DNA of 64,000 bases from Candidatus Scalinduaceae bacterium (GTDB taxonomy: Bacteria; Planctomycetota; Brocadiia; Brocadiales; Scalinduaceae), in assembly GCA_046759445.1 (NCBI GenBank), contig JBHICG010000003.1:32001-96000 (forward strand), read 5' to 3'. This document shows positions 27,200-61,978 of this stretch, in pieces. Made by a program: the position numbers and the translations under genes. Under the pieces are notes generated by a model that worked only from the letters and a program-made list of their open reading frames with translations, did no database searches and was not told where the DNA came from. Position 1 is the first letter of the stretch. The number at the start of each line of letters is the position of its first letter.

Positions 27200-27483
27200 G
27201 CTTCGGGAGAGACTCCCGAAGCACAAGAGAATTTTAAAATTTATTATAATTGCATGAGTTCGGGAAATTGTTTTCCAATCCCCCCCTTCCCCCTTTGATA
27301 AAGGGGGTAATCCCCCTCAGTCCCCCTTTGGAAAAGGGGGATATAGGGGGATTTTCTTCTGCATCTGGATTACCCGTCCGAACGGCACCTGCCCGAAAGA
27401 CATGGTCGGGCGTGTGGCTGGGCGGGCAGCCGCTACAAAGGAACAGGCATCTTTCTTTTTGAAAAAAAGAAGCCTGTTCCTTT
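27200..27483. repeat. Cluster of palindromic elements between fliS and fliD
   Basis: GCTTCGGGAGAGACTCCCGAAGC, two CCCCCTTT..AAAGGGGG units, a nested CCCG...CGGG element and the hairpin CAAAGGAACAGGC...GCCTGTTCCTTTG. Confidence 0.8.
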
Positions 27484-27517
27484 GATATTCCGTGTTTTTC
27501 CGTTGTGAACTTCGTGT

Positions 27518-30500
27518 CTAACTCAATAACTTAGTTAGTGAGCCAAGTTGTTGTGTCAAAAATGAACTTATTGATTGAAGTCTTGAAAGAGATATTTCTA
27601 GTTGAACAAATTGATTCTCTATCTTTATTTGTTCTAATGCTAAACGTCCTTCCATACCCTCAATTGTATCTTGTAGATTATCAACTGTTACTTGAATACC
27701 ATCCATCCTAATCGTGAGGAGACCATCAAATTGGTCAGTAAAGGAGTCAAGGTCGTTGTACATCTCCTCTCCAACTCCTATTGTCAGCTTTACGTTGCCC
27801 TTCGAGCCTGTGGTTGTAGAGGCAACATTTATCGAGAGCCCCCCAACACTTGTTGTGGATCCGGTATCACCGGTTAAGATCTGTCCTACACCGGTAGCAG
27901 CCTCGCCGTTTATGGTACCCGCAACATCGGCGCCAACGAAGGTACCGGCTGTTCCAGTGAGAGCGTTCATCTCAGTTATTGTAAAACCCTGAGCGCTTCC
28001 AAAGCTATCATGTGTGATTACGAGTTGATCGCTGCCATCTTTAGATGCCGTAATTTCCATTGCATATTTTCCAGTTATACCGCCTGTATTTGTTGTTAAT
28101 ACCGTCCCAAAGTCCAGATTACGTCCTGCAGGTTCTGTTATCGCAATTGAGAGTTGGCTGTCTCCAACTGTATTGTCTGTTAACACTATCTCTCCCGAGC
28201 TATTGATTGTGGCTGATATACTGTTACTATATGCGCTTTCTATTGCAGAAAGAAAACCTTGAACTGTATCTGTAGAGACGTCACTTATTGTATATGAACC
28301 ACTTATAGATAGTCCTGAACGTGTTGTTCCTGTAAAGGAAATTATATCACCATTTACCAAGTCGCTTGCGTCTCCACCTGTATTAATCTCAGAGAATTTT
28401 GTGCTGCTGGTTATTACACCTCCACCTGCGGCGGTGGTTTTAGAGTTGGCTACACTTCCAACAAGGGTTTGTGTGCGTTCTATATCGAGTTCCGAATTGA
28501 TGGCATTGACAATATTGTCTATAGAGCTGCCATTTTGTCCGGCGTTTCCATCAAGGGTTATGGTTGCAACCCTGCCAGTAGCGGTATCCGTAATCGTTAA
28601 TGTCTCGGTATTTCCTGCTCCTATTCCATTGGTAAGGATGTTTCCGGTCACGGTTGCCTGAGTAGCAACTGTGGTAATGTTAACTGCGTACTCGCCTGCT
28701 ATAGTATTTTTATTATGCCCTATAAACGTAATCTCGCTATTTGTTGCCGTACCTTCCGCAATAAACATCCTCTTGACGGCATTGAAGTCAGAGCTGATTG
28801 CTGACAGGAAATCACTATCTTTTAAAGACAACTTACCATTTACGTCAGAGGTTATTCCAATCAAAGAAAGGGCATTTGAACCACCTGGTAGTAAAGAAAT
28901 GGTGCTCGTAATTGTTGATTGAATAATACTCTTAATTGAAGATAAGAAGGTTTCACCTGAAAGGATACCAGCGCTTTCTGTTTCTTCATTAAACGTGAAT
29001 TGATCGTTTATAAATTCAATGACGCCGTTATAGGCAGATACAAAATCATTCACACTGGATTTAATGCTATCCGTATCTCTGGACACAGTCAGGTTTACGG
29101 TGGTGCCGTTTTCGATCCTTGATAAGTCTATGGTAACCCCGCTTATGACGTCATCAATTGAATTGGTACTTCGCGTAACGGCGACACCATCAATTTTTAC
29201 ATTTGCATCCTGCCCTGCCGTAGTTTGCATGGTGAAACCCTGGGTTGTTGCGGAGACAACGCCAAAATCAAGTGTACCACCACCCTCATTGTTAGTTATT
29301 ATGTCTACACTCAATTGACTATCTCCGGCAGTGTCGTCTGTTATCACAATCTGCCCTGTAGCATCTATTGTCGCACTGCCTGCAGTAAGGCCAAATACTG
29401 TTTCTATCTGTGTTAATAGTCCCTGAATAGTATCGGTATTTATATTGCTTATTGTATATGTCCCAGATACAGAATTTCCATTGTGGTCTGTTCCCGATAT
29501 AGTGATTGTATCATTATTCTGAACATTATTTAAACCTCCACCTGTATCTATATCATCAAATGTTGTACCGGAGTCGATTGCAAGTCCTGTAGAAACCTTT
29601 ATATTCGCTGTAGATGCCGTGTGAACTTCTGCGACGGAACTTTGCTGCCCTTCAAGGATACCTAAGGTTTCAAGTATATTATTGCTATCTGTAAAGGACG
29701 TGGTGCCGCTAATATCGATTCGGAAAGTAGTTACACCATTAGTAGTCGTACTCACAACGGAGGCTGTTCCTTTTGATGCTGCTGTAAGTGCAGTATTGAT
29801 ATTGCCGGCAATAGTAGATAGAGATTCGCTGGAAAGGTCTATAACGATGTTTTCACCCGCAATGGTTACAGTACCATTCTGAGCATTTGTCAAATTGAGT
29901 AGAGATTTAATAGTAGTTTCGCTGTTAGAGAATTCATCTGATTTAGCGCCATCACTTGTAGAGTTCTTAATTGTGGTACTGCCATTAGTAAGGCCTAGTG
30001 TTTGGAGTATGTTTGTGGCACCGGATGATGCATCGAGTATGCTGAATGAATCTTTACCTGTATTATCACTTGTAAGGATCAGGCGATTGTCTGTACTTGA
30101 GACAGAAAGTATGGTAGCCGTTACTCCCGTTGCATTAGAGCCAGAGTTGGCATTGTTAATCTTAGTGGCAATATCAGCAAGAGTGTCTGTTGTGATAACG
30201 GTTATTGCCTTACCGTTTATTACAAAATCACCTGAAAGATTTAGCGCCGTTGATGTGCTGCTATAACTCTGCGATGATAATTGTCTTGCCTGTGCTAATT
30301 GTGATGAAGATGTAAATTGTACCGTGTGGGTGCCAGGGCTTGCATCAGTTGTTGTTAAGACTGAGAGGAGGTCACTTGCCTTGAAATTAGTTGAGTTGGT
30401 TGATATTGCCGATTTAAAGACATTGAAAGTCTTACTATCTTTAAGTGTACTTGCCTTAGATTTGAAGTCTAATAACTGTGTGTTAAAGGATTGATAAGCC

Positions 30501-30637
30501 TTTAGTTTGTTACTCTGTGCGGTTTGGTTGTTAACAACTACATCGATACGTTTTCTGCTTATGGAGATAAGTTGTTGGATTAAGGTTGCAGTATCAAGGC
30601 CGGAAATCAAACCACCTATAGAACTTGTGCCAGGCAT
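27518..30637 (-). CDS. fliD: Flagellar filament cap FliD, unusually long (1039 aa)
   Basis: GLISGLDTATLIQQL N-terminus, GQDA..KIDG....RSTNSIDDVISGVT, C-terminal coiled coil. Confidence 0.95.
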   Translation of the reverse strand: MPGTSSIGGLISGLDTATLIQQLISISRKRIDVVVNNQTAQSNKLKAYQSFNTQLLDFKSKASTLKDSKTFNVFKSAISTNSTNFKASDLLSVLTTTDASPGTHTVQFTSSSQLAQARQLSSQSYSSTSTALNLSGDFVINGKAITVITTDTLADIATKINNANSGSNATGVTATILSVSSTDNRLILTSDNTGKDSFSILDASSGATNILQTLGLTNGSTTIKNSTSDGAKSDEFSNSETTIKSLLNLTNAQNGTVTIAGENIVIDLSSESLSTIAGNINTALTAASKGTASVVSTTTNGVTTFRIDISGTTSFTDSNNILETLGILEGQQSSVAEVHTASTANIKVSTGLAIDSGTTFDDIDTGGGLNNVQNNDTITISGTDHNGNSVSGTYTISNINTDTIQGLLTQIETVFGLTAGSATIDATGQIVITDDTAGDSQLSVDIITNNEGGGTLDFGVVSATTQGFTMQTTAGQDANVKIDGVAVTRSTNSIDDVISGVTIDLSRIENGTTVNLTVSRDTDSIKSSVNDFVSAYNGVIEFINDQFTFNEETESAGILSGETFLSSIKSIIQSTITSTISLLPGGSNALSLIGITSDVNGKLSLKDSDFLSAISSDFNAVKRMFIAEGTATNSEITFIGHNKNTIAGEYAVNITTVATQATVTGNILTNGIGAGNTETLTITDTATGRVATITLDGNAGQNGSSIDNIVNAINSELDIERTQTLVGSVANSKTTAAGGGVITSSTKFSEINTGGDASDLVNGDIISFTGTTRSGLSISGSYTISDVSTDTVQGFLSAIESAYSNSISATINSSGEIVLTDNTVGDSQLSIAITEPAGRNLDFGTVLTTNTGGITGKYAMEITASKDGSDQLVITHDSFGSAQGFTITEMNALTGTAGTFVGADVAGTINGEAATGVGQILTGDTGSTTSVGGLSINVASTTTGSKGNVKLTIGVGEEMYNDLDSFTDQFDGLLTIRMDGIQVTVDNLQDTIEGMEGRLALEQIKIENQFVQLEISLSRLQSISSFLTQQLGSLTKLLS

Positions 30638-30727
30638 TTAAACTCCCATACGTTTATTATGGATTGCAGATTTCGGATTAAGAGAAATGAATTCGAAAAC
30701 CACTTTCCAAGATTTTTAAATAATATT

Positions 30728-30961
30728 TTAAAGACAACTAATAGGGTGAAGTTCTCGTATTATCCCTTTTGGATGTGACGTATATTCGAACAAGTGTCTT
30801 GACCTATTTATCTTCTCAATTTCATATGCATATTCATTGGTTAATCTCTCTACTGCTGCCTTATTAGTCTTTTTTGCCTTTTCAATGTCTTCAGGAGTAG
30901 CATACCAGCAGTACCAATTAATAAAGTTTCTTTTTTCCTGTTCTTTTTCTATCCCAACCAT
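30728..30961 (-). CDS. Small hypothetical protein, first gene of the fliD operon
   Basis: AAAGGAGA SD 7 nt before the ATG at 30961. FINWYCWYATPEDI motif. Confidence 0.7.
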   Translation of the reverse strand: MVGIEKEQEKRNFINWYCWYATPEDIEKAKKTNKAAVERLTNEYAYEIEKINRSRHLFEYTSHPKGIIRELHPISCL

Positions 30962-30991
30962 AAGATTATCTCCTTTTTCCATTTTTGATAT

Positions 30992-31008
30992 CGCAATATT
31001 AGTACCAA
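30992..31008 (-). promoter_or_regulatory. Sigma54 promoter for the orf-fliD-fliS operon
   Basis: Minus strand TTGGTACTAATATTGCG, GG-N10-GC. Confidence 0.75.
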
Positions 31009-31152
31009 AAATTTATTAATTTTGTCTTAACTTATTGTTGTTACAAGACAATGACTTATAAATTGTTTATGACGTATCCGTTTTATACTAAAAAATTTAA
31101 CAGGTTAAAATTCACATGCAGTGGTAAATTTTTTCCCCTAACTTCAGAATTA

Positions 31153-31262
31153 GTCAAATTGTTAAATAGTTAAATGGTCGATTAGTATAATTCAAATACA
31201 TTTTGAAATTAGCTATTTATCTATTTAACGAATCAACCATTTAACCATTTAACTCTTTCACG
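31153..31262. repeat. Inverted arrays of an 8-bp tandem unit (AACCATTT-like) downstream of the four-helix bundle gene
   Basis: GTCAAATT GTTAAATA GTTAAATG, then AGCTATTT ATCTATTT AACGAATC AACCATTT AACCATTT AACTCTTT. Confidence 0.75.
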
Positions 31263-31263
31263 A

Positions 31264-31647
31264 TTATTCGTATTTTTTCCTATTCTTAAGATATTTTATG
31301 TAGCCATTGAGAATTATTATGGCTGTTTTTATTTCATCAATCATTTTTTCGGATTTGGTATTTTCCATATACTTACATTCTTCGGCTACGAGAATATGGT
31401 CTATCAACTCATAAAGTGATCCACGCGATTGTCTACAGAATTGTATGTTCTCTTGGTAATGAAATCGCCCGTATCCTTCTGCTATACAAGCTGTTGAAGA
31501 TCTTGATGCCCTGATCATTTGATCTGATAATCTGTGTTTTTCTTCTTTAGAAAAATTATTGCATAACTGCCAGACCTTCTTTCTTATGTCTCTACATCGT
31601 TGCCAAACTTCCAGATCACGAAAATCATTGTACTTCGATTCTGCCAT
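31264..31647 (-). CDS. Four-helix bundle protein (23S rRNA IVS-protein / Avd-like family)
   Basis: FRDLEVWQ, EEK..LSDQM.RA..S...IAEG.GR....E...F....RGSL.E. Confidence 0.92.
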   Translation of the reverse strand: MAESKYNDFRDLEVWQRCRDIRKKVWQLCNNFSKEEKHRLSDQMIRASRSSTACIAEGYGRFHYQENIQFCRQSRGSLYELIDHILVAEECKYMENTKSEKMIDEIKTAIIILNGYIKYLKNRKKYE

Positions 31648-31649
31648 TT

Positions 31650-31697
31650 AACCATTTCTCAATTTAACAATTCAGCTATTTGACCATTTAACGACAC
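31650..31697. repeat. 8-bp tandem array upstream of the four-helix bundle gene
   Basis: AACCATTT CTCAATTT AACAATTC AGCTATTT GACCATTT AACGACAC. Confidence 0.75.
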
Positions 31698-31709
31698 CAG
31701 TCTATGTAT

Positions 31710-31743
31710 AAAAAAGGGAGGGTGGTATATTACCACCCTCCCT
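31710..31743 (-). terminator. Intrinsic terminator of fliC
   Basis: Perfect stem AGGGAGGGTGGTA/TACCACCCTCCCT with a T-run on the minus strand. Confidence 0.9.
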
Positions 31744-31785
31744 GCTTACTTATATTGCAACAAACTTAATAAGCGTTTATGTTGC

Positions 31786-32922
31786 TTAACCAAGTAGACT
31801 CAATACTGCCTGCGGTGCAAGGTTGGCCTGTGCAAGCATTGCAGTACCTGCCTGAATCAATATCTGATTCTTGGTAAAGGAGACTGTCTCAAAAGCCAGA
31901 TCAGCATCACGAATGATAGATTCTGCGGCAGATAAGTTTTCAATGCTTGTAGCCAGGTTAGCGCTGGCGAATCCAAGCCTGTTTTGTGCAGAACCAATAT
32001 CTGCACGAGCATTTGCTACCGTGTCAATAGCATTATCAATCGTAGTTAAAGCGGTTTGTGCGCCAGATACTGTAGTGAGTGTTATATCTGCGGAACTGCC
32101 ACTATTTAGGACGGCTACATTCAGGTCTGCTAAGCTGATACCAATTCGGTTACTTCCTGCATTCTCAAATCCAACCTGGAATACGGATTGAGCAGAAGTT
32201 GAAGTGCTTATGGTGTCGGATACACCACCACCACCTGGGGTAGTTACTGATGTAAATCCGGCATCAACAGTAATCTTGATACCAAAAGATGAGAAATTTA
32301 GTGTCTCAGTGCTACCCTCTGCAGGTCCGCTAACTGTTAAGGTTTGAGAAACACTATTCTGCGTAATCTGTATAGTTTCATTTGTAGTATTAATGGCGAC
32401 TGTAAATTGGGTAGCAGAGGCAGCCTCGGAGGTGTCCACACCTACAACTCCACTGGTAGCTACCAAGTTACCAAAATCGCTAATCTGAACAGAACCGAAA
32501 TTTCCATCGATCAGGGTTCGCCCTGAAAATTTAGTTGAATTGGCGATTCGGTCAATTTCAGACTCAAGGTCAGTAACTTCATTGTTTATTTTTGTTCGGT
32601 CAGCAGATGTGGTGTTGGCAGATGCTGCCTGCGTTGCAAGCTCCTTCATCCTCTGTAAGATGTTAGTTATCTGATCTGCAGCGCCTTCTGCAACCTGTAG
32701 TAGCGAATTTGCCTGGCTTGCGTTATTAGCGCCCTGTCTTAAACTTAGAATCTGAGCTCTAAATCTCATTGAAACAGCAAGACCAGCAGCGTCATCTGAT
32801 GCCTTATTTATCTTGAAACCAGTTGATAGTCTTTCTAATGATCTTGTCAAATTGGCATCATTTATTACAAGAGCTCTATGTGTAGCTAGAGCAGCGATAT
32901 TATTTTGAATTCTTAAACCCAT
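31786..32922 (-). CDS. fliC: Flagellin
   Basis: LERLSTGFKINKASDDAAGLA, RA.IG..QNRL, S.IRDAD.A, MLAQAN..PQ.VLSLL. Confidence 0.98.
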   Translation of the reverse strand: MGLRIQNNIAALATHRALVINDANLTRSLERLSTGFKINKASDDAAGLAVSMRFRAQILSLRQGANNASQANSLLQVAEGAADQITNILQRMKELATQAASANTTSADRTKINNEVTDLESEIDRIANSTKFSGRTLIDGNFGSVQISDFGNLVATSGVVGVDTSEAASATQFTVAINTTNETIQITQNSVSQTLTVSGPAEGSTETLNFSSFGIKITVDAGFTSVTTPGGGGVSDTISTSTSAQSVFQVGFENAGSNRIGISLADLNVAVLNSGSSADITLTTVSGAQTALTTIDNAIDTVANARADIGSAQNRLGFASANLATSIENLSAAESIIRDADLAFETVSFTKNQILIQAGTAMLAQANLAPQAVLSLLG

Positions 32923-33140
32923 TTTATAATCCTCCTTGATTTTGTCTGAGACGTATTTCTGACGCTCAGAGCGATTAACAATATTAAATTTATACCCTGA
33001 TTTTGCATCCTTGCTAAATCAGTAAAAAATAAAACATGAACAAAGTTACTACCAAAAATCATTTCTTATTTTTCTATAATTCCTCACCTCCTTTTTATAA
33101 TGATGTTTTTAATCGACCTTAATGGGTAGTGCTTGTTACT
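32923..33140 (-). promoter_or_regulatory. Long fliC 5' leader with CsrA-type GGA hairpin sites
   Basis: Minus strand CTGATTTAGCAAGGATGCAAAATCAG hairpin with an AGGA loop. SD CAAGGAGGA. Extra AAAGGAGGTGA upstream. Confidence 0.65.
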
Positions 33141-33147
33141 GTAGAAA

Positions 33148-33174
33148 TTATCGGCAAGGAGGCAAGAGACTTTA
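33148..33174 (-). promoter_or_regulatory. Sigma28 promoter of fliC
   Basis: Minus strand TAAA-N15-GCCGATAA, exact consensus. Confidence 0.93.
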
Positions 33175-33443
33175 GGGGAAAATCCTGAAAAGCATAAGTA
33201 TTGTCATATTATTAAGTTATCGAAAATTGTGATTAGTAATCAGTGTTGCGATGCCGTTCAGCATTACCTTTTTAGGTTTAAAAACATACCTAAAGACTAA
33301 ACGTGTATCGTTATGCAGTGTTTTAAAATACGTAAGCATTCACGAGTAGAAAATATTAAGTAATATAACTGGAGTGAACTTTTGTGGCTACAAATAACAC
33401 ATGTGCGGGTTGTGTGTTGAGGAATTTCCTTTAATCGAAAATA

Positions 33444-33535
33444 GATTCCCGATCAGAGTCGTCGTGTGATTCTGCCTGTCCTTCGGACAGGCAGAATCAC
33501 CTAAGCAATTCCGCTGTTGCGGAATTGCCCTTGAC
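33444..33535. repeat. Composite ~90-bp palindromic element (second copy at 51441-51534)
   Basis: GATTCCCGATC..GTCGTCGTGTGATTCTGCCTGTCCTTCGGACAGG..GAATCA.CTAAGCAATTCCGCTGTTGCGGAATTGCC..TGAC. Confidence 0.9.
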
Positions 33536-34681: not shown

Positions 34682-34736
34682 ATAAATTAGCTCCTTTCAC
34701 TCGCTAATTTAATGTATAGGAAATTCAATAATAGTT

Positions 34737-34854
34737 TCCCCCCACTTCTTGCTTTCGCAAGAAAGCAGTGGGGGGATAAAGGCCTGTCTGCCGACAGGTA
34801 GGGGTGTGTAAATATACCATTATACACACCCCCGGCCCCTCTTTTTAGAGGGGA
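34737..34854. repeat. Nested palindromic elements
   Basis: CCCCACTTCTTGCTTTCGCAAGAAAGCAGTGGGG, CCTGTCTGCCGACAGG and CCCCTCT..AGAGGGG. Confidence 0.85.
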
Positions 34855-36716: not shown

Positions 36717-36905
36717 CCTTTAGGCATTATCTTAGTTTAAAAGGCTAAAAATGTTAACTCCTTCTTTGCTACTAAGCTTTACGGAGTTAAGTCTTTAGAC
36801 TTTTATAATCTGCAAACTTTTATTAAAAGCTAAAGCCTTAATTCCAATTATCTATCTTTTTCTGCGATATTTAACTTACGTGACTATGATTCTCATATTA
36901 CTATA

Positions 36906-38459: not shown

Positions 38460-38802
38460 AGCCCGACAGTATCGTTATGGCGGGTAAATCGATCTTGCTG
38501 GTTCAATCATGTTGATTGAACCTAAATGTTCTGGCTCAGGCTGCAAGCCTGAACCAGCCAAATGGTTAAATTCAATCCCCCTTAGTCCCCCTTTAGTAAA
38601 GGGGGTTCTGTGTTCTGTGTTTCGGGAGTCCCTCCCGAAACATCATCATCTCTAATACTTACTGTTAAATAAAGCATGAAGATTCGCTTCGGGAGAGACT
38701 CCCGAAACACAGGAATTTGTTTCAATTTATGTTAATTGGTGTCTGTTGCGGAATTGTCAATGACATTTTTGGGAATTTAAGTTTCCGCAATAGAAACTAA
38801 TT
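38460..38802. repeat. Cluster of several palindromic elements
   Basis: GCTGGTTCA..TGAACCAGC, CCCCCTTTAGTAAAGGGGG, two TTCGGGAG..CTCCCGAA units and a TGTTGCGGAA...TTCCGCAATA element that contains the GT stop codon. Confidence 0.8.
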
Positions 38803-41800
38803 AGCAGTTAGAACATTTACTGTATCCATTGGTTGAACTCGTTTCAGATCCTCGCATATCTTAAAAGCAGTATCAGCAGCTTGAGTATCCCGCCTTTCTT
38901 TAAGTTTATGGCCTATTATGTCAAAGAGATTTGCCAGATCAGATATGCTTTCCAATGTTATATTTCTAGATATATTGAGGAGTTGCAATAACTGGTCGCA
39001 ATAAGAGACAACATCTTCGAAATTACCTTGAAGAATATTAATTTTGCATATAAGTAATCTGATATCAAACAGAGAAGGTTCTATATTGACGGCCTTTTCC
39101 CAAAAATGAATAGCTTCCTTGAGGTTGCCTTTTTTAAATTTAACATGACCCATTTTGATAATTGCATCTACTGAAGTATCTTTAATATTTAGGAGCTTCT
39201 TGTAGATTTCCTCCGACTTTTCAAGATTGTTATTATCCAGATAGAATTTACCTATAAGCCTAAGGCAATCTTCAATTGCAGTCGACACCTTAAGCGCTTT
39301 ATCTATCTCGGCATTGCCCTTTTCATTCTGACCGCTGGATAGGTAGTAAAATCCACGTAACAAATGTATCTTCCATTTATGACCAATGGTATAGTAGGTA
39401 TATGCATTAATCGCTTCATTGTGATTTGCGATACTATCCAATAGAGTTATATAATTGTCTGAAGTCTGCAGAAAATTGTCATACTTTTTCAGATTGTAAT
39501 AAATGAATGATAGGATACAGAAAACATCTAAGTAATTTTCATCGATTCCCATTGCTCGCAGGGCGTATGTTTCTGACTCTTTTAGTTCTCCTTTCTCAAA
39601 ATATGCGGCGCTGATAACGTAGTAAGAAACCAGGAAATCTTTTATATTAAATCCATTATTCTCTGCAAGTTCTAATGCCCTCTTACTTTCTGAGACTGCC
39701 TCATCATACATACCCTGATCCAGATACGAAATGCCGAGGTACCTGTGCGGAACAGGATTATGTGGTTCTTGTTTTATCTGATCCTTTAATAATATGGTGG
39801 TGCGTAAAAACTTTTCTTCCATTTTTTCTTCAGATAAGTTATAGCCGTGATGGATAACACTTAACGAGGAATCAAGACATTTACCCGTATGCCTTAAGCG
39901 ATTGTGCACAGTTCCCTCATAATACGTCCCGTTAAAGTTCTTGAAAAGGCGTATCATCTTTGCGTAGCATTCTTGTGTGGAATCTTTAAACTTATTTTTA
40001 ATAAGAAAAGAAACAGCCGTATAGTTGTTATTACTGGCTATTTCTTTTAGCTTGGGGATATCAGTCTTATTCATCTCTTCGTCGGCATCGAGTATTAATA
40101 TCCATTCACTGGTTGCATATTTCAGTGAATAATTTCTTGCCTTGCTAAAACTCCCTTCCCATGGATGATGAAATAATTTTGCTCCAAAACTCTTTGCAAT
40201 CTCGACACTCCTGTCAGTAGAACCTGTATCAACAATTATTATTTCATCTACTACATCTTTGACGATGTTAAGGCACTGTGCAAGATTATGTTCTTCATTT
40301 TTTACGATCATGCAGAGGGATATACTGCCATGAAATCCCCCCCACTGCTTTCTTGCACCGTAGCGGCACGCTGCGAAAGCAAGAAGTGGGGGGGATTTAG
40401 GTGGATTCTCTCTTCTCTTCGATAATTTCTTCTGGACGTTTTTGAGGTTATTTATGATTACCTGATTATGAGGGTCAAATTCACTGGCCTTTTTGAAGAA
40501 GAACGCTGCCCTTTCGTACAACCCTTCTTTATCTTCAAGACAACCAAGATTATTGTAAATCTCTGCATCCTTTACCCTCTGAAGGACTTTATAAAAGAAG
40601 ATCCTTGATTCCTCGAATCGCTTCATGTCAAGACACAGTGTTCCCATGCCCTTGATAGCATTGACGTAATCTGTATCGATTTCTAATGCCTTTTTATATA
40701 GCGTTTCTGCCATCTTAAAATCATTCTTTAAGTAATACAAACGTCCGAGATTGTACTGTGCGGATTTTGATTGAGGACAAAACTCACAAGCCTTCTTCAG
40801 GTAAAAATCGGCATGGTCGTAATCATCGAGTGAACTATATACACAACCAAGATTTTCGTATGCCTCGAAATAATCAGGTGATATGTCTATGGCTTTTTTC
40901 AAATACTTTACTGCATCTTCAAATAAACCTTTCTCTGAACACTGTATTCCAAGGTCAAAGTGTGCCCTTGCGTTGTTGGGATTGTCTTTTATCTTTTTCA
41001 TGCCGATAGAAAGATACAAGTCTCCTTTTTTGTCTAGTTGTTGTTTGTCTTTAGCTTTTCCGTAATGATGAATTACAATATCAGTATTTCCTATTTGATT
41101 GTTTCCATCAAGGTGTGAAATATCCGCAATTTCATGCACTCTGCCACTGAAACGGATCCCCCTCCGGTTTTTGAATAGTCTGATTAGGGGAGAATCTATA
41201 TATCCAGCGTAATCCTTGCCTTCAATGTAGTCTGTCTTATTCTCCATCCAGCCCTTGAAACCTGCATAATTTTCATAATTTCTCTGTATCAAATTAAATC
41301 CGGTATTATCTGTAATACTTATTAATTCCCTTATTCTTTGCATATCTTTCTCTGCTATGACTTCGTCTGCATCGAGCGCCAATATCCAATTGCCAGTTGC
41401 ATGTCTAAGAGATATATTTCTTGCCTCACTAAAATCGTCATTCCATTTATGGCCGTACACCCTGGCGCCATACTGTTTTGCTATCTCAACAGTTTCATCA
41501 TCTGAACCTGTATCTACTACAATAATCTCGTCTACAAATGGTTTCATCTTTTGCAGACATTTTGGCAGGTAGTCTTCTTCATTCTTAACTATCATGCATA
41601 AGGATATAGTTGATCTGCTTTTTTCATCCAAAGATCTTACAAATATTCCATCCATTTTACTAATTGGAGGATTATCCAGTTCTACTTTGCCAACAGGCAT
41701 AATCCCCCTTCCTCCCCCTTTGATAAAGGGGGAATGAGGGGGATTTTCATCTTCCTTCCTGTCCGAACGCCTTGCCTGAGCGGATGTGCCTTCTTTTGAA

Positions 41801-43021: not shown

Positions 43022-43110
43022 TTCTAAGCATTAAATCCCGGCCTCGCCGGCAGGCCCGTCAGCCATTCTTCGGGCAGGCAGGCGAAATACAAAACAATTT
43101 CAAATTTCAA
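43022..43110. repeat. Nested element in a short-tandem-repeat host
   Basis: AAATCCC[GGCCTCGCCGGCAGG[CCCGTCAGCCATTCTTCGGG]CAGGCAGG]CGAAATAC. Confidence 0.7.
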
Positions 43111-46238: not shown

Positions 46239-46397
46239 TTTTGTCTCCTGTTTAGCCTTCTATAATTTTTTGCTCTTTTTTGTTCAACAATAATTCTAGG
46301 AATTTCAATGTTACCACAAAGATTCCTGTCTGCCGTGCTCACGGCACAGGCGGGCAGGTCTGGTTTCTTACCCGACATAATGAAGACTGCCGAAGGC

Positions 46398-49466: not shown

Positions 49467-49480
49467 ATCAATGTTATTAT

Positions 49481-50411: not shown

Positions 50412-50424
50412 TAGTGCCTTAATA

Positions 50425-50480
50425 AAAATATTTTGACCAATCCCTGTTCAAAACATACAGGGACAAGTTTTAGCAAAAAT
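50425..50480 (+). repeat. 56-bp element with an inverted copy at 61896-61951
   Basis: AAAATATTTTGACCAATCCCTGTTCAAAACATACAGGGACAAGTTTTAGCAAAAA. The reverse complement matches almost exactly. Confidence 0.9.
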
Positions 50481-50564
50481 TTCAATTTACAATTTAGGAA
50501 TTCAGGAATTTAGGGATTCACAAGTTATTCAATTATTCAATTCCTTAATATTTATAATTCCGAC

Positions 50565-51440: not shown

Positions 51441-51690
51441 GATTCCCGATCGGGGTCGTCGTGTGATTCTGCCTGTCCTTCGGACAGGTCGAGAATCATC
51501 TAAGCAATTCCGCTGTTGCGGAATTGCCAATGACAAACTTGTAACGTTCTAACTTGTTTCCAGAATTCAACTTATCTGTCATTCCCGAGGAATGCCTACT
51601 TGGGAAGCAGACAGGGAATCTGATCCTGACTTTCGTCAGGACATGCTTTCATCCTTCGTGGTGCCACTTAGTGGCATGAATGTTTGATCA
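51441..51690. repeat. Composite GATTCCC/GTCATTCCCG-type palindromic element with nested inserts
   Basis: Copy of the 33444 element, plus GTCATTCCCG...GGGAATC, TCCTGAC..GTCAGGA and TGCCACT.AGTGGCA hairpins. Confidence 0.8.
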
Positions 51691-52014: not shown

Positions 52015-52057
52015 TAAGACAGAAGTCGTAAAGTTTATACCGGTGTAAAAACCTAAA

Positions 52058-52190
52058 TAGTATTTGTTGCAGAAAGCTTAAATACTCAAAAATGTCATTC
52101 TGAACTTGTTTCAGAATCTATATATATAAGACGTTAAAGACCCTGAAACGAGTTCAGGGTGACAATATAGTATTTCCACAACAGATACTA
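52058..52190. mobile_element. MITE-like element (shorter copies at 38734-38802, 62853-62928, 58659-58684)
   Basis: TIRs TAGTATTTGTTGCAGAAA / TTTCCACAACAGATACTA with a shared AAAAATGTCA core. Confidence 0.75.
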
Positions 52191-52208
52191 AATAATCGTT
52201 TATATAAA

Positions 52209-54401: not shown

Positions 54402-54417
54402 GAAAGTGAGGTGAAAA

Positions 54418-54816: not shown

Positions 54817-54824
54817 CCAATTAC

Positions 54825-54916
54825 AATTCCCCCCTTTGCTGAAGGGGTGAAATCCCCTTAATCCCCCCCCACTTCTTGCTTTCGCAAGAAAGCAGTGGGG
54901 GGAAATAGGGGGATTT
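54825..54916. repeat. Nested palindromic element
   Basis: AATCCCCTTAATCCCC[CCCCACTTCTTGCTTTCGCAAGAAAGCAGTGGGG]GGAAATAGGGGGATT. Confidence 0.88.
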
Positions 54917-54961
54917 GGCATTAAATTATTAAACCATCTTTAAAAGGAAAGGGGTAAAAAA

Positions 54962-56572: not shown

Positions 56573-56587
56573 TTACTGAGGACTTCG

Positions 56588-56633
56588 ACCTAAATTAAGC
56601 GATTTTCAGAAATCGCTTAATTTAGGTTTTTTT
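56588..56633 (+). terminator. Intrinsic terminator after flgE
   Basis: ACCTAAATTAAGCGATTT/AAATCGCTTAATTTAGGT stem followed by a T-run. Confidence 0.85.
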
Positions 56634-56934
56634 AAAGTATGAGAAGATTTTCAATATGTAAAAAAGCCGTAAAATATCCTTAACACATAATCTGAATATA
56701 TTCTATCATTCAAATTATGGTGTTCTAAAATGGCCTTAAAGGGATTGAGGTTTCGCAAGCATAGGAAGTTTTTACACAAAATGTAGAAATAATTATCTTG
56801 GATTTTACTATAGGAAAAAAATTTAATAGACTATATCTAATTATGCCAACATTGTCATATACCTAGATACTTATAATATAAAGTGTTATAAACAATTTTT
56901 AAAAATAATCTTTTTGTCCGCTTTAAATTAGCTT

Positions 56935-56951
56935 TTGGCACAAATGTAGCG
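56935..56951 (+). promoter_or_regulatory. Sigma54 promoter for flgFGAHIJN
   Basis: TTGGCACAAATGTAGCG, GG-N10-GC. Confidence 0.7.
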
Positions 56952-57020
56952 TAATACAAGAGACATAGCTTTTGTATCATAACAATAAATTCCTACTATA
57001 AGAAAATAGAGAGGTAGAAG

Positions 57021-57740
57021 ATGATTGATAGTATATACGATGTTGCTTCTGGTCTTGATGCTTTCATTAAAAACCAGGAAGTGATAGCAAGGAATATTGC
57101 TAATGCAAACACTGTTGGATTTAAGAAGAGCGTGGTTGATTTTAGCATTATTCTTGAGGAAGTAAATGGAGTAGAGAAAGAGAATATTCAGGCGGAGATC
57201 GGGATTAACTTCTCTGAAGGCAATCTTGAATACACAGGTAATAGTTTAGATATAGCCATTGATGGCGAAGGGTTCTTTACAATTGAGACCGAACAGGGTT
57301 TGAGATATACAAGAAATGGACAATTTAAGCTCTCAGATAGTGGTGAGATAGTAACATTAAGTGGTGGGAAACTGTTGGGAACAGGTGGAACAATATTTGT
57401 ACCCAAAAGTGGCGGAGAGATTACGATAGACAGTAAGGGTATTGTTAAAGCGGGTAATACCGTGATCGGAGAGTTATTGATTACCAACTTTAATCAGCTA
57501 TCCGTACTAACCCCAACAGGTGAAGGTTTATTTGAGGTGCCATTGGCGGCAATGCAGGATCTTGCAGAAGCAAATTTTAAGATTGCACAGGGTTATCTGG
57601 AAAGGTCAAACGTAAATGTAGCTTTGGAAATGATTGATATGATTGCAAATATGAGAAGCTACGAAGCAAGCAGTCAAATCATAAAGTCTTTAAGTGAGTC
57701 TACGGAACAATTGATTAGTAATCAGTTAAATAGTGTCTAG
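57021..57740 (+). CDS. flgF: Basal body rod protein FlgF
   Basis: NIANANTVGFK, DIAIDGEGFF, YTRNG, LERSNV. Precedes flgG. Confidence 0.9.
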   Translation: MIDSIYDVASGLDAFIKNQEVIARNIANANTVGFKKSVVDFSIILEEVNGVEKENIQAEIGINFSEGNLEYTGNSLDIAIDGEGFFTIETEQGLRYTRNGQFKLSDSGEIVTLSGGKLLGTGGTIFVPKSGGEITIDSKGIVKAGNTVIGELLITNFNQLSVLTPTGEGLFEVPLAAMQDLAEANFKIAQGYLERSNVNVALEMIDMIANMRSYEASSQIIKSLSESTEQLISNQLNSV

Positions 57741-57754
57741 AAACTTTTACCCAA

Positions 57755-57831
57755 GTAGCCGCAGGCTTTAGCCTGCGAACATAAATAACGCAACCTCCCT
57801 GTCTACCGACAGGCGTAAAGGTTGCGGTTAC
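57755..57831. repeat. GTAG-type REP doublet (REPIN-like) with a 20-bp nested insert
   Basis: GTAGCCGCAGGCTTTAGCCTGCG...ACGCAACCT[CCCTGTCTACCGACAGGCGT]AAAGGTTGCGGTTAC. Confidence 0.8.
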
Positions 57832-57876
57832 AGAATCGTACATTTTTGATTTTAACAAAGAGGAGAAGAAAAAGCC

Positions 57877-58662
57877 ATGATGAAAGCATTATACACAAGT
57901 GCAACAGGTATGCAGGCACAACAGTTCTTTCTAGATATTGTTTCAAATAATCTTGCTAATGTTAATACAACAGGATTCAAAAGAGTACAGGTCAATTTTC
58001 AGGATTTGCTATATGATAAGAGCATCCCTGCTGGCGCAGAATCTGCTCAAGGACTCCAAATACCAACAGGTTTACAAGTGGGAAGTGGTGTTAGAGTCAT
58101 ATCCACCAATAAAGTTTTTACTCAGGGAGTACCTGAAAATACCGGCAGGTCATTGGACTTAGCTATTCAGGGATCAGGGTTTTTTCAGATGTCGCATCCT
58201 GATGGAAGCACTGTGTATACTCGTGACGGAGCGTTTCAGCTTAACAGTAATGGAGAGATAGTGAATGGTGAAGGTCTTAAACTCGAGCCTGCCATCTCAA
58301 TTCAAGGTGATGTCGTATCCATTAGTATTGGTTCAGATGGGACGGTATCAACTCAGAGCTCAACTGGAAGTGTTCAATCTGCAGGGCAAATAACTCTGGC
58401 ATCATTCCCGAACCCTGCAGGGCTTGAAAGTATAGGGCGTAATCTTTACCGAGAGACAACTGCATCTTCCAGCCCGCAAACGGGTACACCGGGGCAAAAT
58501 GGCATTGGTGAGATTATACAGGGATTTCTAGAAAGTTCAAATGTTCAGGTTGTAACTGAAATGGTAAACCTTATTGTTGCACAAAGGGCATACGAAATAA
58601 GCTCAAAGGCAATTAAGGCCAGTGACGAAATGTTATCAATAACTAATCGACTCATTAATTAG
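57877..58662 (+). CDS. flgG: Distal rod protein FlgG
   Basis: ALYTSATGM.AQQ, FQDLLY, GLQVGSGV, QRAYE. Confidence 0.97.
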   Translation: MMKALYTSATGMQAQQFFLDIVSNNLANVNTTGFKRVQVNFQDLLYDKSIPAGAESAQGLQIPTGLQVGSGVRVISTNKVFTQGVPENTGRSLDLAIQGSGFFQMSHPDGSTVYTRDGAFQLNSNGEIVNGEGLKLEPAISIQGDVVSISIGSDGTVSTQSSTGSVQSAGQITLASFPNPAGLESIGRNLYRETTASSSPQTGTPGQNGIGEIIQGFLESSNVQVVTEMVNLIVAQRAYEISSKAIKASDEMLSITNRLIN

Positions 58663-58736
58663 TATCTGTAGCGGAAACTAATTAACAAAAAGTCGTTCGA
58701 ATCTCCATCTAATTATTTAAAAAAGGAGTTTGAAAA

Positions 58737-59708
58737 ATGAGAGCTATAAAATCAGTATATTTGGTTTTGTTTACGTTTGTGTTTGTTCATATTGCTTTAG
58801 CAGATCAAATTGAAATAAACATTAAGGATAAAGTCACTCTTAAAGAAAAAACAATAACAATTAGTGACATCTCAACAGTTGTTGGTGATGACGTTGCACT
58901 CGTCAACAGGATTAATAATATAGAAATTGGAAGAACACCATGGCCAAATAATCAAAGAAGGATAGGTGCGGAATATATGATGATGCGTCTTAGGGCATTA
59001 AACATCAATTTGTCGGATATTATTTTCAAAGGAGCCAAGGCGGTTATAGTTTCGGTCGAATCGACAAAAATAACTGGTGCAGAAATTGCACAAAAAGCAA
59101 AGGAGTATTTGTTATCTGTTATAACATCAAAGGATAGAGAAACAATCATAGAGTTGGTAAGAATACCCGGTGATCAATGGGTGACAAAAAGAAGGGACGA
59201 GATTGTTCTCAGTGTATCTCTTGCAGATAATAGTAAAAATAGAGGCAATATAGAGGTAATAGTTAGTGCCCCTTCGGACGATATTCCTTTTTTCAAAATA
59301 CCTGTGTTTTTTAAAGTCAGGGTGTTCGAAAACGTTGCCATTGCAAAGAGGAGGATAAATAGTCGCCAGCCCTTAACTAGTGAGAACGTGTTTTTAGGCA
59401 AAAGAGAGACTACAGAAACAAGGGGTTTAGCCTATTCCAGCTTGGAGGATTTAGTGGATAAGGTGGCAATCCGAACAATTCTCCCAAATACTATAATTAC
59501 AGAGGAAATACTTGAAACACCTCCGGCAATAAAAAGGGGTAATGTAGTGAAATTATTTATAAAAGCTGATAATTTTAGTATCATCACCAAGGGGTTGGCA
59601 CAGGAAACTGGATATACTGGTGAAGTGATAAAGTTCAAGAATTTAGATACAGAAAAGGTAATTTACGGTAAAATTATAGATTCTGAGAACGTCCAGATAG
59701 TATTTTAA
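58737..59708 (+). CDS. flgA: P-ring chaperone FlgA
   Basis: Signal peptide, SAF-like C-terminus IKRGNVV...G.A.E.G..GE.I..KN. Synteny. Confidence 0.9.
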   Translation: MRAIKSVYLVLFTFVFVHIALADQIEINIKDKVTLKEKTITISDISTVVGDDVALVNRINNIEIGRTPWPNNQRRIGAEYMMMRLRALNINLSDIIFKGAKAVIVSVESTKITGAEIAQKAKEYLLSVITSKDRETIIELVRIPGDQWVTKRRDEIVLSVSLADNSKNRGNIEVIVSAPSDDIPFFKIPVFFKVRVFENVAIAKRRINSRQPLTSENVFLGKRETTETRGLAYSSLEDLVDKVAIRTILPNTIITEEILETPPAIKRGNVVKLFIKADNFSIITKGLAQETGYTGEVIKFKNLDTEKVIYGKIIDSENVQIVF

Positions 59709-59787
59709 TCCCCCCCCCACTTCTTGCCCCCAATGCTTTCTTGTGGAAGCAAGGAATGGGGGCAGCGGGGGTGAATAAGCGGAATTT
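59707..59787. repeat. Nested palindromic element (same-family copy inside another) at the flgA stop
   Basis: CCCCACTTCTTGC[CCCCAATGCTTTCTTGTGGAAGCAAGGAATGGGG]GCAGCGGGG. Confidence 0.85.
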
Positions 59788-59820
59788 ATTTAAGTCATTT
59801 ACTATAAAAAAGGAACTAAA

Positions 59821-60480
59821 ATGTTTAGATTAAGTTTTATTCTCATCGTCAGTCTTATTTTAAATACAGGTTTATTTACTTCAAAGGGTTCCCTTTTTGC
59901 TGATTCATTATGGAAGAGAAGAGTTACCATAAACTATAATCTCTTCGATGACAATAGAGGTAAAAGGATTGGAGATATTGTTACCGTAATAGTAGTCGAA
60001 GAGACCAGTATAGACAATGATGAGAGCTCCTCCACAAATAATGAAAACAAATTATCTGGAGAAATTAATAATAATGCATTCTTACGTGGAATACAATCTG
60101 GAATAACAAAAGGGCGAAATGCAAAATTTAGTCCAAGACCTGCTAATAGTGTTTCTGGTGATTTCTCACAGGAATTTAGTGGTAAAGGTACCTATGAAAG
60201 TGTAAGGAAGATAAATCTGAGGCTTACGGCAATGGTAGTAGAAGTGCTTGATAACGGTAATCTGCTTCTTGAAGGTAAAAGGGAAGTAGACGTTAATAAG
60301 GAAAAATACAACTTGAAACTCACTGGTATAGCCAGACCAATCGACATAGGTACAGACAACACAATATTATCAACCCAGATGTCAAACGTAAACTTTGGAC
60401 TTGAAGGAAAAGGATGGTTAACCAGGGCAGGGAAAAAGGGTTGGTTTAATAGGGTAAGAGATATCTTCTGGCCATTCTAA
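59821..60480 (+). CDS. flgH: L-ring protein FlgH
   Basis: LFDD.R...IGDIVTV, VVEVL.NGNL..EG, GIARP.DI...N, GW.....WPF. Confidence 0.93.
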   Translation: MFRLSFILIVSLILNTGLFTSKGSLFADSLWKRRVTINYNLFDDNRGKRIGDIVTVIVVEETSIDNDESSSTNNENKLSGEINNNAFLRGIQSGITKGRNAKFSPRPANSVSGDFSQEFSGKGTYESVRKINLRLTAMVVEVLDNGNLLLEGKREVDVNKEKYNLKLTGIARPIDIGTDNTILSTQMSNVNFGLEGKGWLTRAGKKGWFNRVRDIFWPF

Positions 60481-60520
60481 CGTTTCCTAATTCCTATAAC
60501 ATATTGAGAATAATGAGATT

Positions 60521-61729
60521 TTGATGCAGATGTCTATTACTTCACACAACAATTGCGGATTGCAGATTGCAGATTGCAGAAAGAAAATCCGAAATTTAAA
60601 GAATATGCTTCGTTGCCTTTTGCACATTATAGTATTAATCGTAACTTATTCTTCCTTTTCAAACACATATGTCCACGGGAGTATAACAAGTCGAGTAAAG
60701 GACATTGCGTATGTTCAGGGTGTTAGAGATAACTATTTATTTGGTTATGGCCTTGTAGTTGGCTTGCAGAGAACGGGAGACAAAACTACCTTTACCTTTA
60801 CGAGGCAGTTGGCTAAAAATATCTTTGAAAAGCTTGGTGTGATTACGACTAGTTCTGCCTTTGACTCAGACAATATAGCAGCAGTGCTCATTACAGCAAA
60901 GGTTCACTCGTTTGCCAAATCCGGTGATAGAATAGATGTTCTTGTATCCTCCATTGGTGACGCAAAAAGCCTGGAAGGTGGTGTACTCGTTCATACCACC
61001 CTTCAGGGGATTGATAATGAGGTATATGCAGTTGCTCAAGGTCCGCTATCCATCGGTGGTTTTAATGTTAGTGGGGCTGCAGAGCAAACAAGAAAAAATA
61101 TTGCTACAACAGCACATATTCCACGAGGTGCACTTATAGAAAAAGAAATACCCGTTCACGTATTTTTTGGCAATGCAATCAGATTGAGTTTAAATGATAC
61201 GGATTTTACAACGGCCCAGCGTTTAATGAATGTCGTCAATACTAAATATCCGGGTTCTTCCCAGGCCATCAGTGCCGCAGAGGTAGAGATAATACCTCCT
61301 CAAGAATTTCGAGCAATAGACAGGATAACACAGTTTATTTCACAAATTGAAGAACTGACGGTTATACCAGATTCCATTGCACGTATTATTATCAACGAAA
61401 GGACAGGTACAATTGTGGCAGGGGAGAATGTCAGGATTTCAACAGTGGCGGTAGCGCATGGTAATCTAACAATTACCATTAGCGAAAGGCAGGAGGCATC
61501 CCAACCAGGTCCGTTTGCTCCAACAAGCGCAACTACAGAAGTGCTCGATCGTACAAATGTTGAAGTTGAAGAGGAAGAAGCAAAACTACACGTTATACCT
61601 GATGGAGTAAGCATTTCTGAAATAGCTCGCGCATTAAATGTGCTTGGGGTGACACCAAGAGATATGATTTCTATTTTTCAGGCAATTAAGAAGGCAGGCG
61701 CCCTTCATGCAGAACTCGTAATAATGTAA
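60521..61729 (+). CDS. flgI: P-ring protein FlgI (true start possibly ATG at 60605)
   Basis: RVKDI...GVRDN.L.GYGLVVGL..TGD, NERTGTIV, KAGALHAEL. Confidence 0.96.
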   Translation: MMQMSITSHNNCGLQIADCRKKIRNLKNMLRCLLHIIVLIVTYSSFSNTYVHGSITSRVKDIAYVQGVRDNYLFGYGLVVGLQRTGDKTTFTFTRQLAKNIFEKLGVITTSSAFDSDNIAAVLITAKVHSFAKSGDRIDVLVSSIGDAKSLEGGVLVHTTLQGIDNEVYAVAQGPLSIGGFNVSGAAEQTRKNIATTAHIPRGALIEKEIPVHVFFGNAIRLSLNDTDFTTAQRLMNVVNTKYPGSSQAISAAEVEIIPPQEFRAIDRITQFISQIEELTVIPDSIARIIINERTGTIVAGENVRISTVAVAHGNLTITISERQEASQPGPFAPTSATTEVLDRTNVEVEEEEAKLHVIPDGVSISEIARALNVLGVTPRDMISIFQAIKKAGALHAELVIM

Positions 61730-61978
61730 TACTTTAATAATACATGAGCATTTCCTAACCCGAACGAGTTGGAAACGGAGTTAAGGCTTTAGCCTTTTAT
61801 ACTTGCAATTAATTAAAACCCTGAAGGGTAAACTCCCTGTTGGGATTCGGATTCCCTACGCCGGCAGGCAGATAGCCTTTTATGTTGAAAAATTATTTTT
61901 TGCCAAAACTTGTCCCTGTATGTTTTGAACAGGGATTGGTCAAAATATTTTTGGTAAGAAATTAATCGGGAGAAATTA

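Follow-up and report, generated by a model that had tools for sequence, protein, structure and literature searches.

Hairpin nesting in a Scalinduaceae genome comprises tip replacement by one repeat family and clean insertion of other short units

The nesting of small hairpins in this Scalinduaceae genome is genuine and genome-wide, and consists of two separate phenomena. In the first, family A replaces the loop of other hairpins, with symmetric loss of 5–15 nt of the host tip; in the second, guests of 18, 20, 21, 22 and 23 nt are inserted cleanly, with neither loss nor target duplication. Our leading account, held tentatively, is that these 18–36-base units are non-autonomous mobile DNA residing in host hairpin repeats.

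Nested hairpins in the window

Within the window, the whole 64,000-nt stretch of DNA analysed here, are the following filled and empty hosts:

14041–14095, minus strand: family A inside A, in frame in flhF; the inner copy (14053–14087) replaces 14 nt of the outer
27276–27350, plus strand: empty C-run/G-run host hairpins of the type flanking DUF559 genes
33444–33528, plus strand: composite host with a B2 hairpin (33475–33491) and a second hairpin
34738–34775, plus strand: DUF559-type host with C/G runs into which family A is merged
34783–34802, plus strand: B1, a 20-nt clean insertion in an arm of the preceding DUF559-type host
38574–38710, plus strand: empty hairpin of the DUF559 type, plus a long inverted pair from a different family
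40337–40394, minus strand: family A in a C-run/G-run hairpin, in frame in a glycosyltransferase gene
40356–40373, plus strand: 18-nt guest after TTG in the A loop, without target duplication
41701–41745, plus strand: empty host of the DUF559 type, also in frame in that glycosyltransferase gene
43038–43085, plus strand: B-like composite, degenerate and lying in short tandem repeats, boundaries approximate
46325–46361, plus strand: B-like unit containing a further small hairpin, boundaries approximate
51441–51651, plus strand: composite host with B2 (51472–51488) and several more hairpins
52094–52163, plus strand: empty GTCA-tagged doublet, the commonest A host elsewhere in the genome
54851–54915, plus strand: DUF559-type host with family A (54863–54902) replacing the inner tip
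57755–57832, plus strand: doublet of GTAG-type REPs, the second carrying a 20-nt B unit (57797–57816) in its loop
59710–59771, plus strand: family A inside A, the inner copy (59727–59762) on the opposite strand
62288–62325, plus strand: empty degenerate host; the orthologous site in relative G001 holds A and a 22-nt guest

A preliminary description of the window had reported at least eight recurring short inverted-repeat families, and more than eight do recur genome-wide. It correctly recognized A within A (at 14041 and 59707) and the composite hosts with further hairpins at 33444 and 51441 (56 nt, 95% alike); the second hairpin of the former supplies the stop codon of the 33497–34681 gene. 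It located family A rightly in the C-run/G-run hairpins at 34737, 40334 and 54851, but A replaces the host loop there rather than occupying it. The insert near 40357 is indeed an 18-nt unit, but the TGC duplication ascribed to it is a TGC repeat and not a target duplication. Among the hosts said to be interrupted by further units, the REP loop at 57797 holds one, the unit at 34783 lies in a stem arm and not in a loop, and 43041 and 46325 proved to be only degenerate B-like composites without exact boundaries. As had been stated, the window holds no transposase (none among the 47 window ORFs scanned); an Rfam search of the window returned no match.

Filling of orthologous sites differs between this genome and two relatives, G001 and G002, a comparison that the preliminary description had proposed. 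The outer A copy in flhF is present in both with other fillings, giving three fillings at this site. The flgD–flgE interval of both is free of hairpins of the 54851–54915 type, and the REP doublet of 57755–57832 is missing from their orthologous site; two empty copies of this REP, with a TAAA loop, exist.

Family A replaces hairpin tips

Family A is a unit of 34–36 nt with a C/G clamp and a two-register core, present in 78 copies in the genome. The core has four matches in the window against 0.02 expected, and occurs without its clamp in one case only. Its hosts are of many unrelated types, the commonest genome-wide being the GTCA-tagged hairpins. Of the 13 classes of junction, 12 are symmetric to within 1 nt, two of these only in the second-best fold; the junctions have little or no homology.

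The empty host is present at least three times elsewhere for 23 of 76 A copies, against 4 of 300 in the null; a looser form of this test gave no signal (46/76 copies, 97/200 random points), and the strict form alone was counted. A flank stem of at least 6 bp surrounds 26 of the 78 copies, compared with 3.6% of 20,000 random intergenic points and with a mean of 6.4 and a maximum of 12 copies when flanks were swapped. The first host rung beside A is Watson–Crick in 40/59 contexts here and 42/60 public loci, about 34% being expected from base counts. Perfect-stem counts lie near the swap maxima in G001 (6/34, maximum 6), G002 (8/37, maximum 9) and the public loci (10/60, maximum 9). For family A, nesting exceeds random expectation, as counted over copies that are not independent: hosts are copied with their cargo, inner copies flip, and guests could be spread by conversion from one A copy to another. 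As the flipping takes place within the clamp, opposite orientations were rejected as evidence for separate insertions. No reciprocal tip-swap products were seen.

The hairpins close with triloops GAA, GTA and GCA or tetraloops GCTA and GGCA, and such GNA/GNNA loops match those of mini-hairpin DNA as described in PMC13037366. Family A can be folded with TTGC exposed in its loop.

Shorter guests are inserted cleanly

The 18- and 22-mers are inserted mostly after TTG. Read on the tagged strand, most insertion points of the clean guests are TTG^C or TA^C. On the 5′ side of the 18-mer the flank ends in TTG in 34 of 42 contexts, while the 3′ flank is free. Target duplication (TGC) was rejected for the 18-mer, as it is absent at three of its four unique sites in this genome; the preceding G is absent in 8/35 contexts elsewhere. 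GTAG stands at the hairpin foot of the 22- and 23-mers and in some hosts, and is absent from A; the 18-mer tag varies (GTAG, GTAT, GTGG, GTTG).

The hairpin preference claimed initially holds for family A, and the 18- and 22-mers show it towards the A loop. B and the 18-mer also occur in unique, non-hairpin DNA. A general tip preference of all guests was not supported. Of the 18 host junctions of B1, only 2 are at a hairpin tip (the null being 7% in intergenic DNA and 18% within repeats), and outside A the 18-mer (3/14) and 23-mer (3/12) show a weak bias at most, in counts for which five rows were reassigned to A by eye and loci L001, L071 and L073 excluded. In viral contigs B1 is at the tip in 7 of 26 contexts, a count without a matched null.

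Guests are strain-specific as singlets, and a doublet was not encountered as the mobile unit. When folded as circles, three unrelated guests (the 22/23-nt, a 21-nt and a second 21-nt guest) are predicted to stack their two ends within a continuous helix, as a nicked dumbbell. As a universal rule this fold fails for several plain-hairpin inserts, and it is uninformative for the 18-mer and B1. The circular folds are suggestive of a single-stranded circular intermediate.

Distribution and candidate genes

The exact A core is found in 4/132 genomes of the class, and the 22/23-nt leader mainly in the same four; the unrelated guests occur together as a suite in 4/28 genomes of the family. Beyond the class, the exact 34-nt A pattern appears in records of several phyla; one copy there makes up helix P3 of an RNase P RNA, and others come after tRNA genes. 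The A core is also present in viral contigs, in which the 22-mer was not found. Between G001 and G002 (289 kb aligned) there are strain-specific inserts, and one orthologous site is empty in G000 (C47) and filled in G002. The insertions appear recent and lineage-specific. A close-strain search for an FlhF relative in metagenome contigs found none; public runs with 0.11–0.18 of the words gave fragmented, uninformative contigs, broken at repeats, and no polymorphism within a population was observed.

Outside the window the genome carries RAYT (two scoring above the NCBIfam cut-off), GIY-YIG and DUF559 genes. Contrary to what the preliminary description would lead one to expect, no nuclease gene was found flanked by guest families: these genes are flanked by host repeats, and are also present in guest-free relatives. 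Flanked by GTCA hairpins are the small single-domain GIY-YIG genes C60 (96 aa) and C61 (94 aa). No guest copies were found flanking a RAYT gene, and the flanks of the Y1 matches listed carry other repeats. Across the family, Y1_Tnp is present in 24/28 genomes and GIY-YIG in 28/28, most of them guest-free. Near 44 public loci, no Y1, GIY-YIG or DUF559 protein was found among the 62 of 116 ORFs scanned.

None of three nuclease proteins followed across the 28 genomes tracks the guests cleanly. The SsnA-like C61 protein is in 15/28 genomes, without a match to the guest distribution, and the C98 RAYT, whose REP resembles the 22-mer leader, was rejected as the mover, its close ortholog being only in G002 and not in G001 or G005. 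One GIY-YIG has copies 73–100% identical in G000, G001, G002 and G087; five genomes have multiple matches to the 22/23-nt leader, and these are four of them. It was not found in G005, and three of its carriers belong to one genus. IS200-like copies in the genome have ends that differ in sequence from the guests.

Possible mechanisms of movement

We lean, with some reserve, towards movement of the units as folded single-stranded DNA by a trans-acting enzyme, most likely a HUH strand-transferase of the RAYT/TnpA type. Such a candidate enzyme would cut and join the folded unit; family A would be grafted onto a host stem, whose tip would be lost symmetrically, and the other guests would be inserted with the target neither shortened nor duplicated, in most cases after TTG for the 18- and 22-mers. 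Because these two follow TTG and A exposes TTG in its loop, nesting would feed itself, each arrival presenting a new tip. Loops of intergenic hairpins would be neutral ground, and filled hosts would later be copied with their cargo.

Proposed already in the preliminary description, a trans-acting HUH/RAYT-like system agrees with the clean, duplication-free insertions next to a short motif on one side. The junctions argue against it: they are G^C or A^C, and tested REP transposases are described as cleaving at C^T or CA (PMC3479197, PMC8266576). Also against it are the lack of a guest-flanked gene and the non-independence of the copies. TnpA-REP may join its own 5′ end to any 3′-OH, according to PMC3479197. 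No target bases are deleted in the HUH insertions known, and an extra step would be needed for loss of the tip. A single hairpin-targeting HUH system is possible.

Less likely, no dedicated enzyme is involved: polymerase template switching and gene conversion would shift tips, and selection would leave them at harmless places. A jump across the residual hairpin would give symmetric tip loss, and many A junctions have a G-C rung or C/G run common to both partners. B2 sites keep a variable portion of the host right arm, as expected of copy-choice, flips within stems are observed, and survival is in frame, with all four unique-site 18-mers of this genome inside long ORFs. The constant length of the units, and a motif that is fixed on one side even though the unique sites are unrelated, speak against this explanation, as do the A|T junctions in GTCA hosts, where host and guest have no base in common, and the absence of the guest suite from family genomes that have the nuclease genes of the host repeats.

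Symmetric loss without homology would also follow if a structure-specific nuclease (a small GIY-YIG of the Ssn kind, a DUF559 protein or a host hairpin nuclease) cut the extruded hairpin symmetrically, the tip were trimmed and end joining captured a free hairpin fragment. This is unlikely, although host types flank small GIY-YIG and DUF559 genes, a GTCA tag is no more than 11 nt away from 30/78 A copies, and one GIY-YIG has the partial co-occurrence noted above, the failure to find it in G005 and its concentration in one genus weighing the other way. SsnA is described as accepting loop changes and extensions, but as cleaving upstream of its hairpin and not at the tip (PMC11893778). The published degenerate SRM motif is not enriched here (9 matches; simulated controls gave 6, 12 and 0), A has many unrelated host types, and the clean insertions would be left unexplained.

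At a similarly low probability, the units may move as dumbbells of single-stranded DNA, covalently closed and about 20 bases long, with one hairpin-processing enzyme for both outcomes. One strand exchange would open the dumbbell into the target, giving clean insertion; exchange across a stem would give the tip graft of family A. If so, these units would form a class of mobile DNA of minimal size, able to cross between phyla and to remodel hairpins, RNase P RNA among them. Improbable is an RNA route, in which units would be copied back by reverse transcriptase as reportedly proposed for cyanobacterial SDRs: the size and self-nesting are SDR-like and the RNase P and tRNA contexts would suit it, but A has no orientation bias to genes (26 versus 28, a comparison weakened by flipping) and the loops would fit DNA mini-hairpins better than RNA GNRA.

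Significance and comparison with known systems

New here are the measured symmetric tip grafting, the ortholog comparisons and the nicked-dumbbell anatomy of three unrelated guests. We know of no repeat of 20–40 bases with a proven mover, a question standing since the cyanobacterial SDRs, and to our knowledge symmetric tip grafting is not among the reaction products of known HUH, DDE or CRISPR integrase enzymes. Oligonucleotide assays with few small proteins are made feasible by the precisely defined boundaries, the short targets, the existence of both empty and filled alleles and the narrow range within the class. Working genes gain amino acids from the units, and RNase P RNA gains a helix, which makes them a minor contributor of new sequence in slow-growing bacteria.

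The closest known systems are the Nostoc SDRs, SMR-A of Haloquadratum and REPs in palindromes. Elhai et al. (2008, Genome Res) reportedly described SDR1–8 as small dispersed repeats of Nostocaceae. SDRs are about 20–27 nt, dispersed, precisely inserted at a short target, nested in one another as well as in repeats of other kinds, and hosted by tandem repeats, with no known mover. Compared by description, our guests are likewise short, dispersed, precisely inserted and self-nesting, in another phylum; we know of no symmetric host-tip replacement by SDRs like that by family A. SDR5 is described as inserting in HIP1 (PMC5861425, PMC4390886). A search of the freely available literature found no symmetric tip replacement by a 35-nt unit.

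MITEs, with the terminal inverted repeats of a transposon and a target duplication, were rejected as a model: there is no duplication, and A deletes its target. IS200/IS605 elements and PATEs, as described, combine lack of duplication with a short conserved motif on one (5′) side, as do the 18- and 22-mers but not A; the guests are far shorter than a 52-bp PATE, consist of one hairpin or a mini-hairpin pair, and have no cognate TnpA that we found (PMC3333891, PMC3119063). The likeness to Ssn (NTS/SRM) lies in the 94–96-aa single-domain GIY-YIG genes adjoining GTCA hairpins, and concerns the host rather than the guests; in the available text SsnA cuts outside its hairpin and no joining is reported (PMC11893778).

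Nesting has been described for REPs, in small palindromes, and for REPINs, in other REPINs, and circular intermediates have been modelled (PMC3733652, PMC3116915, PMC3479197, PMC3333891, PMC8266576). Our guests resemble them as small hairpins, with GTAG at the foot of the 22- and 23-mers; they differ as singlets that do not flank RAYT genes and have other junctions, and A is tagless and deletes its target tip. SMR-A of Haloquadratum walsbyi is about 110 bp with terminal inverted repeats and uses one host class, and the available text describes no tip loss (PMC3119063). It nonetheless has in common with the guests here that it is transposase-free, makes no target duplication, inserts within palindromes of other elements and has no known mover (PMC3119063).

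Host and guest repeats

The source genome is a draft of 3.62 Mb with 37% GC, and the window carries a flagellar gene cluster and glycosyltransferases. GC-rich hairpins are present at the coordinates named in the preliminary description and their families recur throughout the genome; the claimed lack of a transposase in the window likewise held (0 of 47 ORFs scanned). An Rfam search of the window returned no match. The repeats form two classes: larger hosts, which include GTCA-tagged hairpins, C-run/G-run hairpins, GTAG-type REPs and short tandem repeats, and small guests. Comparison of the genome's repeat regions with themselves yielded 114 sites existing in a longer and a shorter form. The labels family A (a 34–36-nt nested hairpin), B1 (a 20-nt guest), B2 (a hairpin in composite hosts) and DUF559-type (the C-run/G-run host) were coined in the present analysis. 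One host, with left arm GTGGATTAAG, has a hypervariable loop, with at least 13 different tips among 15 copies. Other features of the window are:

31213–31690, 8-nt tandem repeats on the flanks of a four-helix-bundle gene (31264–31647; TIGR02436 above cut-off) that adjoins flagellin
50440–50500 and 61880–61945, a 62-nt element in opposite orientations, 95% alike
53079 and 53268, a short motif occurring twice within a 90-nt duplication in fliK; fliK of the related genome G002 has a related, strain-specific 24-nt insert
56575–56625, a near-perfect long palindrome 3′ of flgE, a member of the 14-mer family that is commonest genome-wide

Tip replacement by family A

Family A, with 78 copies in a census of the source genome, comprises a 22-nt core between C and G runs that form a clamp. 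The core arms have two pairing registers that covary across subfamilies, the two folds differing by no more than about 0.5 kcal; the exact two-register core was seen without the clamp in one case only. Hairpin loops are GNA or GNNA, and several cores contain GCGNNAGC, a stable DNA mini-hairpin (PMC13037366).

Nesting had been proposed to exceed chance, which holds for family A. Flanks pair over at least 6 bp at 26 of 78 A copies, compared with a rate of 3.6% at intergenic points drawn at random (n = 20,000) and with a flank-swap control (mean 6.4, maximum 12 of 200). A Watson–Crick pair lies directly outside the clamp in 40/59 contexts in the source genome and 42/60 in public loci. A loose search for empty hosts gave no signal above control (46/76 versus 97/200); the strict search, demanding the same centre at least three times, identified 23 of 76 A copies versus 4 of 300 in the control.

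At the 13 junction classes of A, 5–20 nt of host are replaced, and no host is simply added to. Tip loss is symmetric in 12 of the 13, the two sides of a loop differing by no more than 1 nt; two of these are so only in the second-best fold and one lies in a weak hairpin. Replaced segments include:

GTCA host, the 7-nt loop
GAA mini-hairpin, the tip
another A copy, 14 nt

Identical breakpoints in the outer A are used by five different inner copies. A search for the reciprocal product of tip replacement revealed none, and the strand of A shows no bias relative to genes.

Clean insertion after short motifs

Units of 18, 20 (B1), 21, 22 and 23 nt are gained at full length with no host base lost, as are several plain hairpins. 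On the C-starting strand, TTG ends the 5′ flank in 34/42 contexts of the 18-mer and 30/48 of the 22-mer, the 3′ flank of both being unconstrained; the 23-mer is preceded mostly by TA or AA. The TGC duplication described at 40357 proved to be a coincidence of target and ends, three of four unique-site 18-mers in the source genome having no TGC repeat.

Intergenic TTG sites number some 16,000, yet the A loop is favoured: with five rows of the guest counts reassigned by eye, it holds 18 of 32 distinct host junctions of the 18-mer and 21 of 33 of the 22-mer, in several A subfamilies, and tip location outside A is 3/14 for the 18-mer, 5/12 for the 22-mer, 3/12 for the 23-mer and 2/18 for B1 (null, 7% for intergenic DNA and 18% within repeats). 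Owing to these counts, the preference for hairpins put forward earlier is strong only for A and for A as target, and weak for the remaining guests and targets. One register of A exposes TTGC as the loop, which is the likely cause of the hot spot.

Guests also lie within genes of the source genome:

C13:51249, C57:17346, C71:1168 and C82:12489, 18-mer in frame in four unrelated long ORFs, six codons gained
C2:1380–1694 and C8:24452, B-type units inside a DUF559 gene tail and a RAYT-like remnant

Variation among relatives and spread across phyla

Comparison of empty and filled sites in close relatives, as earlier suggested, revealed recent lineage-specific change, orthologous sites differing in filling among the source genome, G001 and G002. 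At the flhF site (14041) the outer A copy is common to all three, and the fillings, each of which keeps the reading frame, differ; the source genome and G002 have the inner copy in opposite orientations. Flips within stems also occur at another orthologous site, and orientation is therefore no measure of the number of insertion events. Repeats at 54851, 57755 and 61750 are missing from the orthologous spacers of both relatives, a site at about 62296 is empty in the source genome and filled in G001, and a hairpin 5′ of miaB is empty in the source genome and contains an 18-mer in G002. Alignment of 289 kb between parts of G001 and G002 (1.61 and 0.86 Mb) provided 86 indel regions for examination and 65 listed GC-rich gaps, some of them clean inserts that lie at REP loops, at the foot of a stem or in DNA of unique sequence. 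Nested stacks in relatives reach at least four levels.

Of 132 genomes of the class, four carry the exact A core; these have 16, 62, 33 and 5 matches to the 22/23-nt leader; elsewhere there are 2 in G087, 1 in G004 and 0 in 22 others (controls, 0–2). The family is also spread across phyla: the 34-nt A pattern matched 40 stretches in named records, from Omnitrophota, Ratteibacteria, Elusimicrobiota, Planctomycetes, Ca. Scalindua and others, again in different hosts, and the core matched four viral contigs. In an Elusimicrobiota record (L054:1481–1969) the P3 helix of RNase P RNA is a family A element; further helices of this RNA also have long insertions. In Omnitrophota (L042, L043, L027 and L035), the element occupies a conserved hairpin immediately 3′ of tRNA genes, and once in an rRNA spacer.

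Candidate movers and mechanism

The nested units are very small mobile repeats, and the phenomenon is real. A search for nuclease genes flanked by the repeats, as earlier suggested, found them beside hosts: among the flanks listed, GTCA hairpins adjoin small GIY-YIG genes, C-run/G-run hairpins adjoin DUF559 genes and two RAYTs (Y1-type HUH transposases) adjoin their own REPs. Near public A loci there were none of the three protein types among 62 ORFs scanned of 116. The source genome has 22 Y1_Tnp, 8 GIY-YIG and 7 DUF559 matches, and these domains occur in 24, 28 and 18 of the 28 family genomes, respectively. The RAYT with a REP similar to the 22-mer leader is matched by a close ortholog in G002 only. 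Close copies of one small GIY-YIG occur in the source genome, G001, G002 and G087, and a search of G005 found none; from this co-occurrence with guests it may be a mover, a lead only, because three carriers belong to a single genus and the locus consists of a local duplication. Small GIY-YIG genes of the source genome include:

C47:22221–23917 and C140:628–996, three copies with a common palindromic leader, adjoining nucleotidyltransferase-like genes and miaB; A together with an 18-mer lengthens one of the copies

We tentatively favour a mechanism in which guest DNA would serve as a folded single-stranded substrate and be moved by an enzyme acting in trans with HUH chemistry. When closed into circles, the 22-mer, the 23-mer and two 21-mers are predicted to adopt full dumbbell folds with the junction within a helix; the circular folds of the 18-mer and B1 do not discriminate. 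Template switching with selection is a rather unlikely origin of the nested units, a nuclease cut followed by end joining slightly less likely again, and an RNA route improbable.

Comparison with known systems

TnpA-REP requires GTAG and a hairpin and cuts at C^T, and its 5′ end may pass to any 3′-OH (PMC3479197); a second REP transposase cuts at CT and CA (PMC8266576). Guest junctions match none of these sites. Circular intermediates have been modelled (PMC3333891). The guests do not pass tests for membership of REPs, MITEs or PATEs. The GTCA host is similar to Ssn targets (PMC11893778) but does not satisfy the SRM motif. REPs within palindromes have been described (PMC3733652, PMC3116915), and the available text of PMC3184786 makes no mention of nesting. 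Symmetric tip grafting was not described in any of the literature searched; the SDR paper of 2008 and supplements, outside that search, may bear on this point. In their behaviour the guests are like the SDRs of Nostoc (citing papers PMC5861425, PMC4390886, PMC2884548), and like SMR-A of Haloquadratum (PMC3119063).
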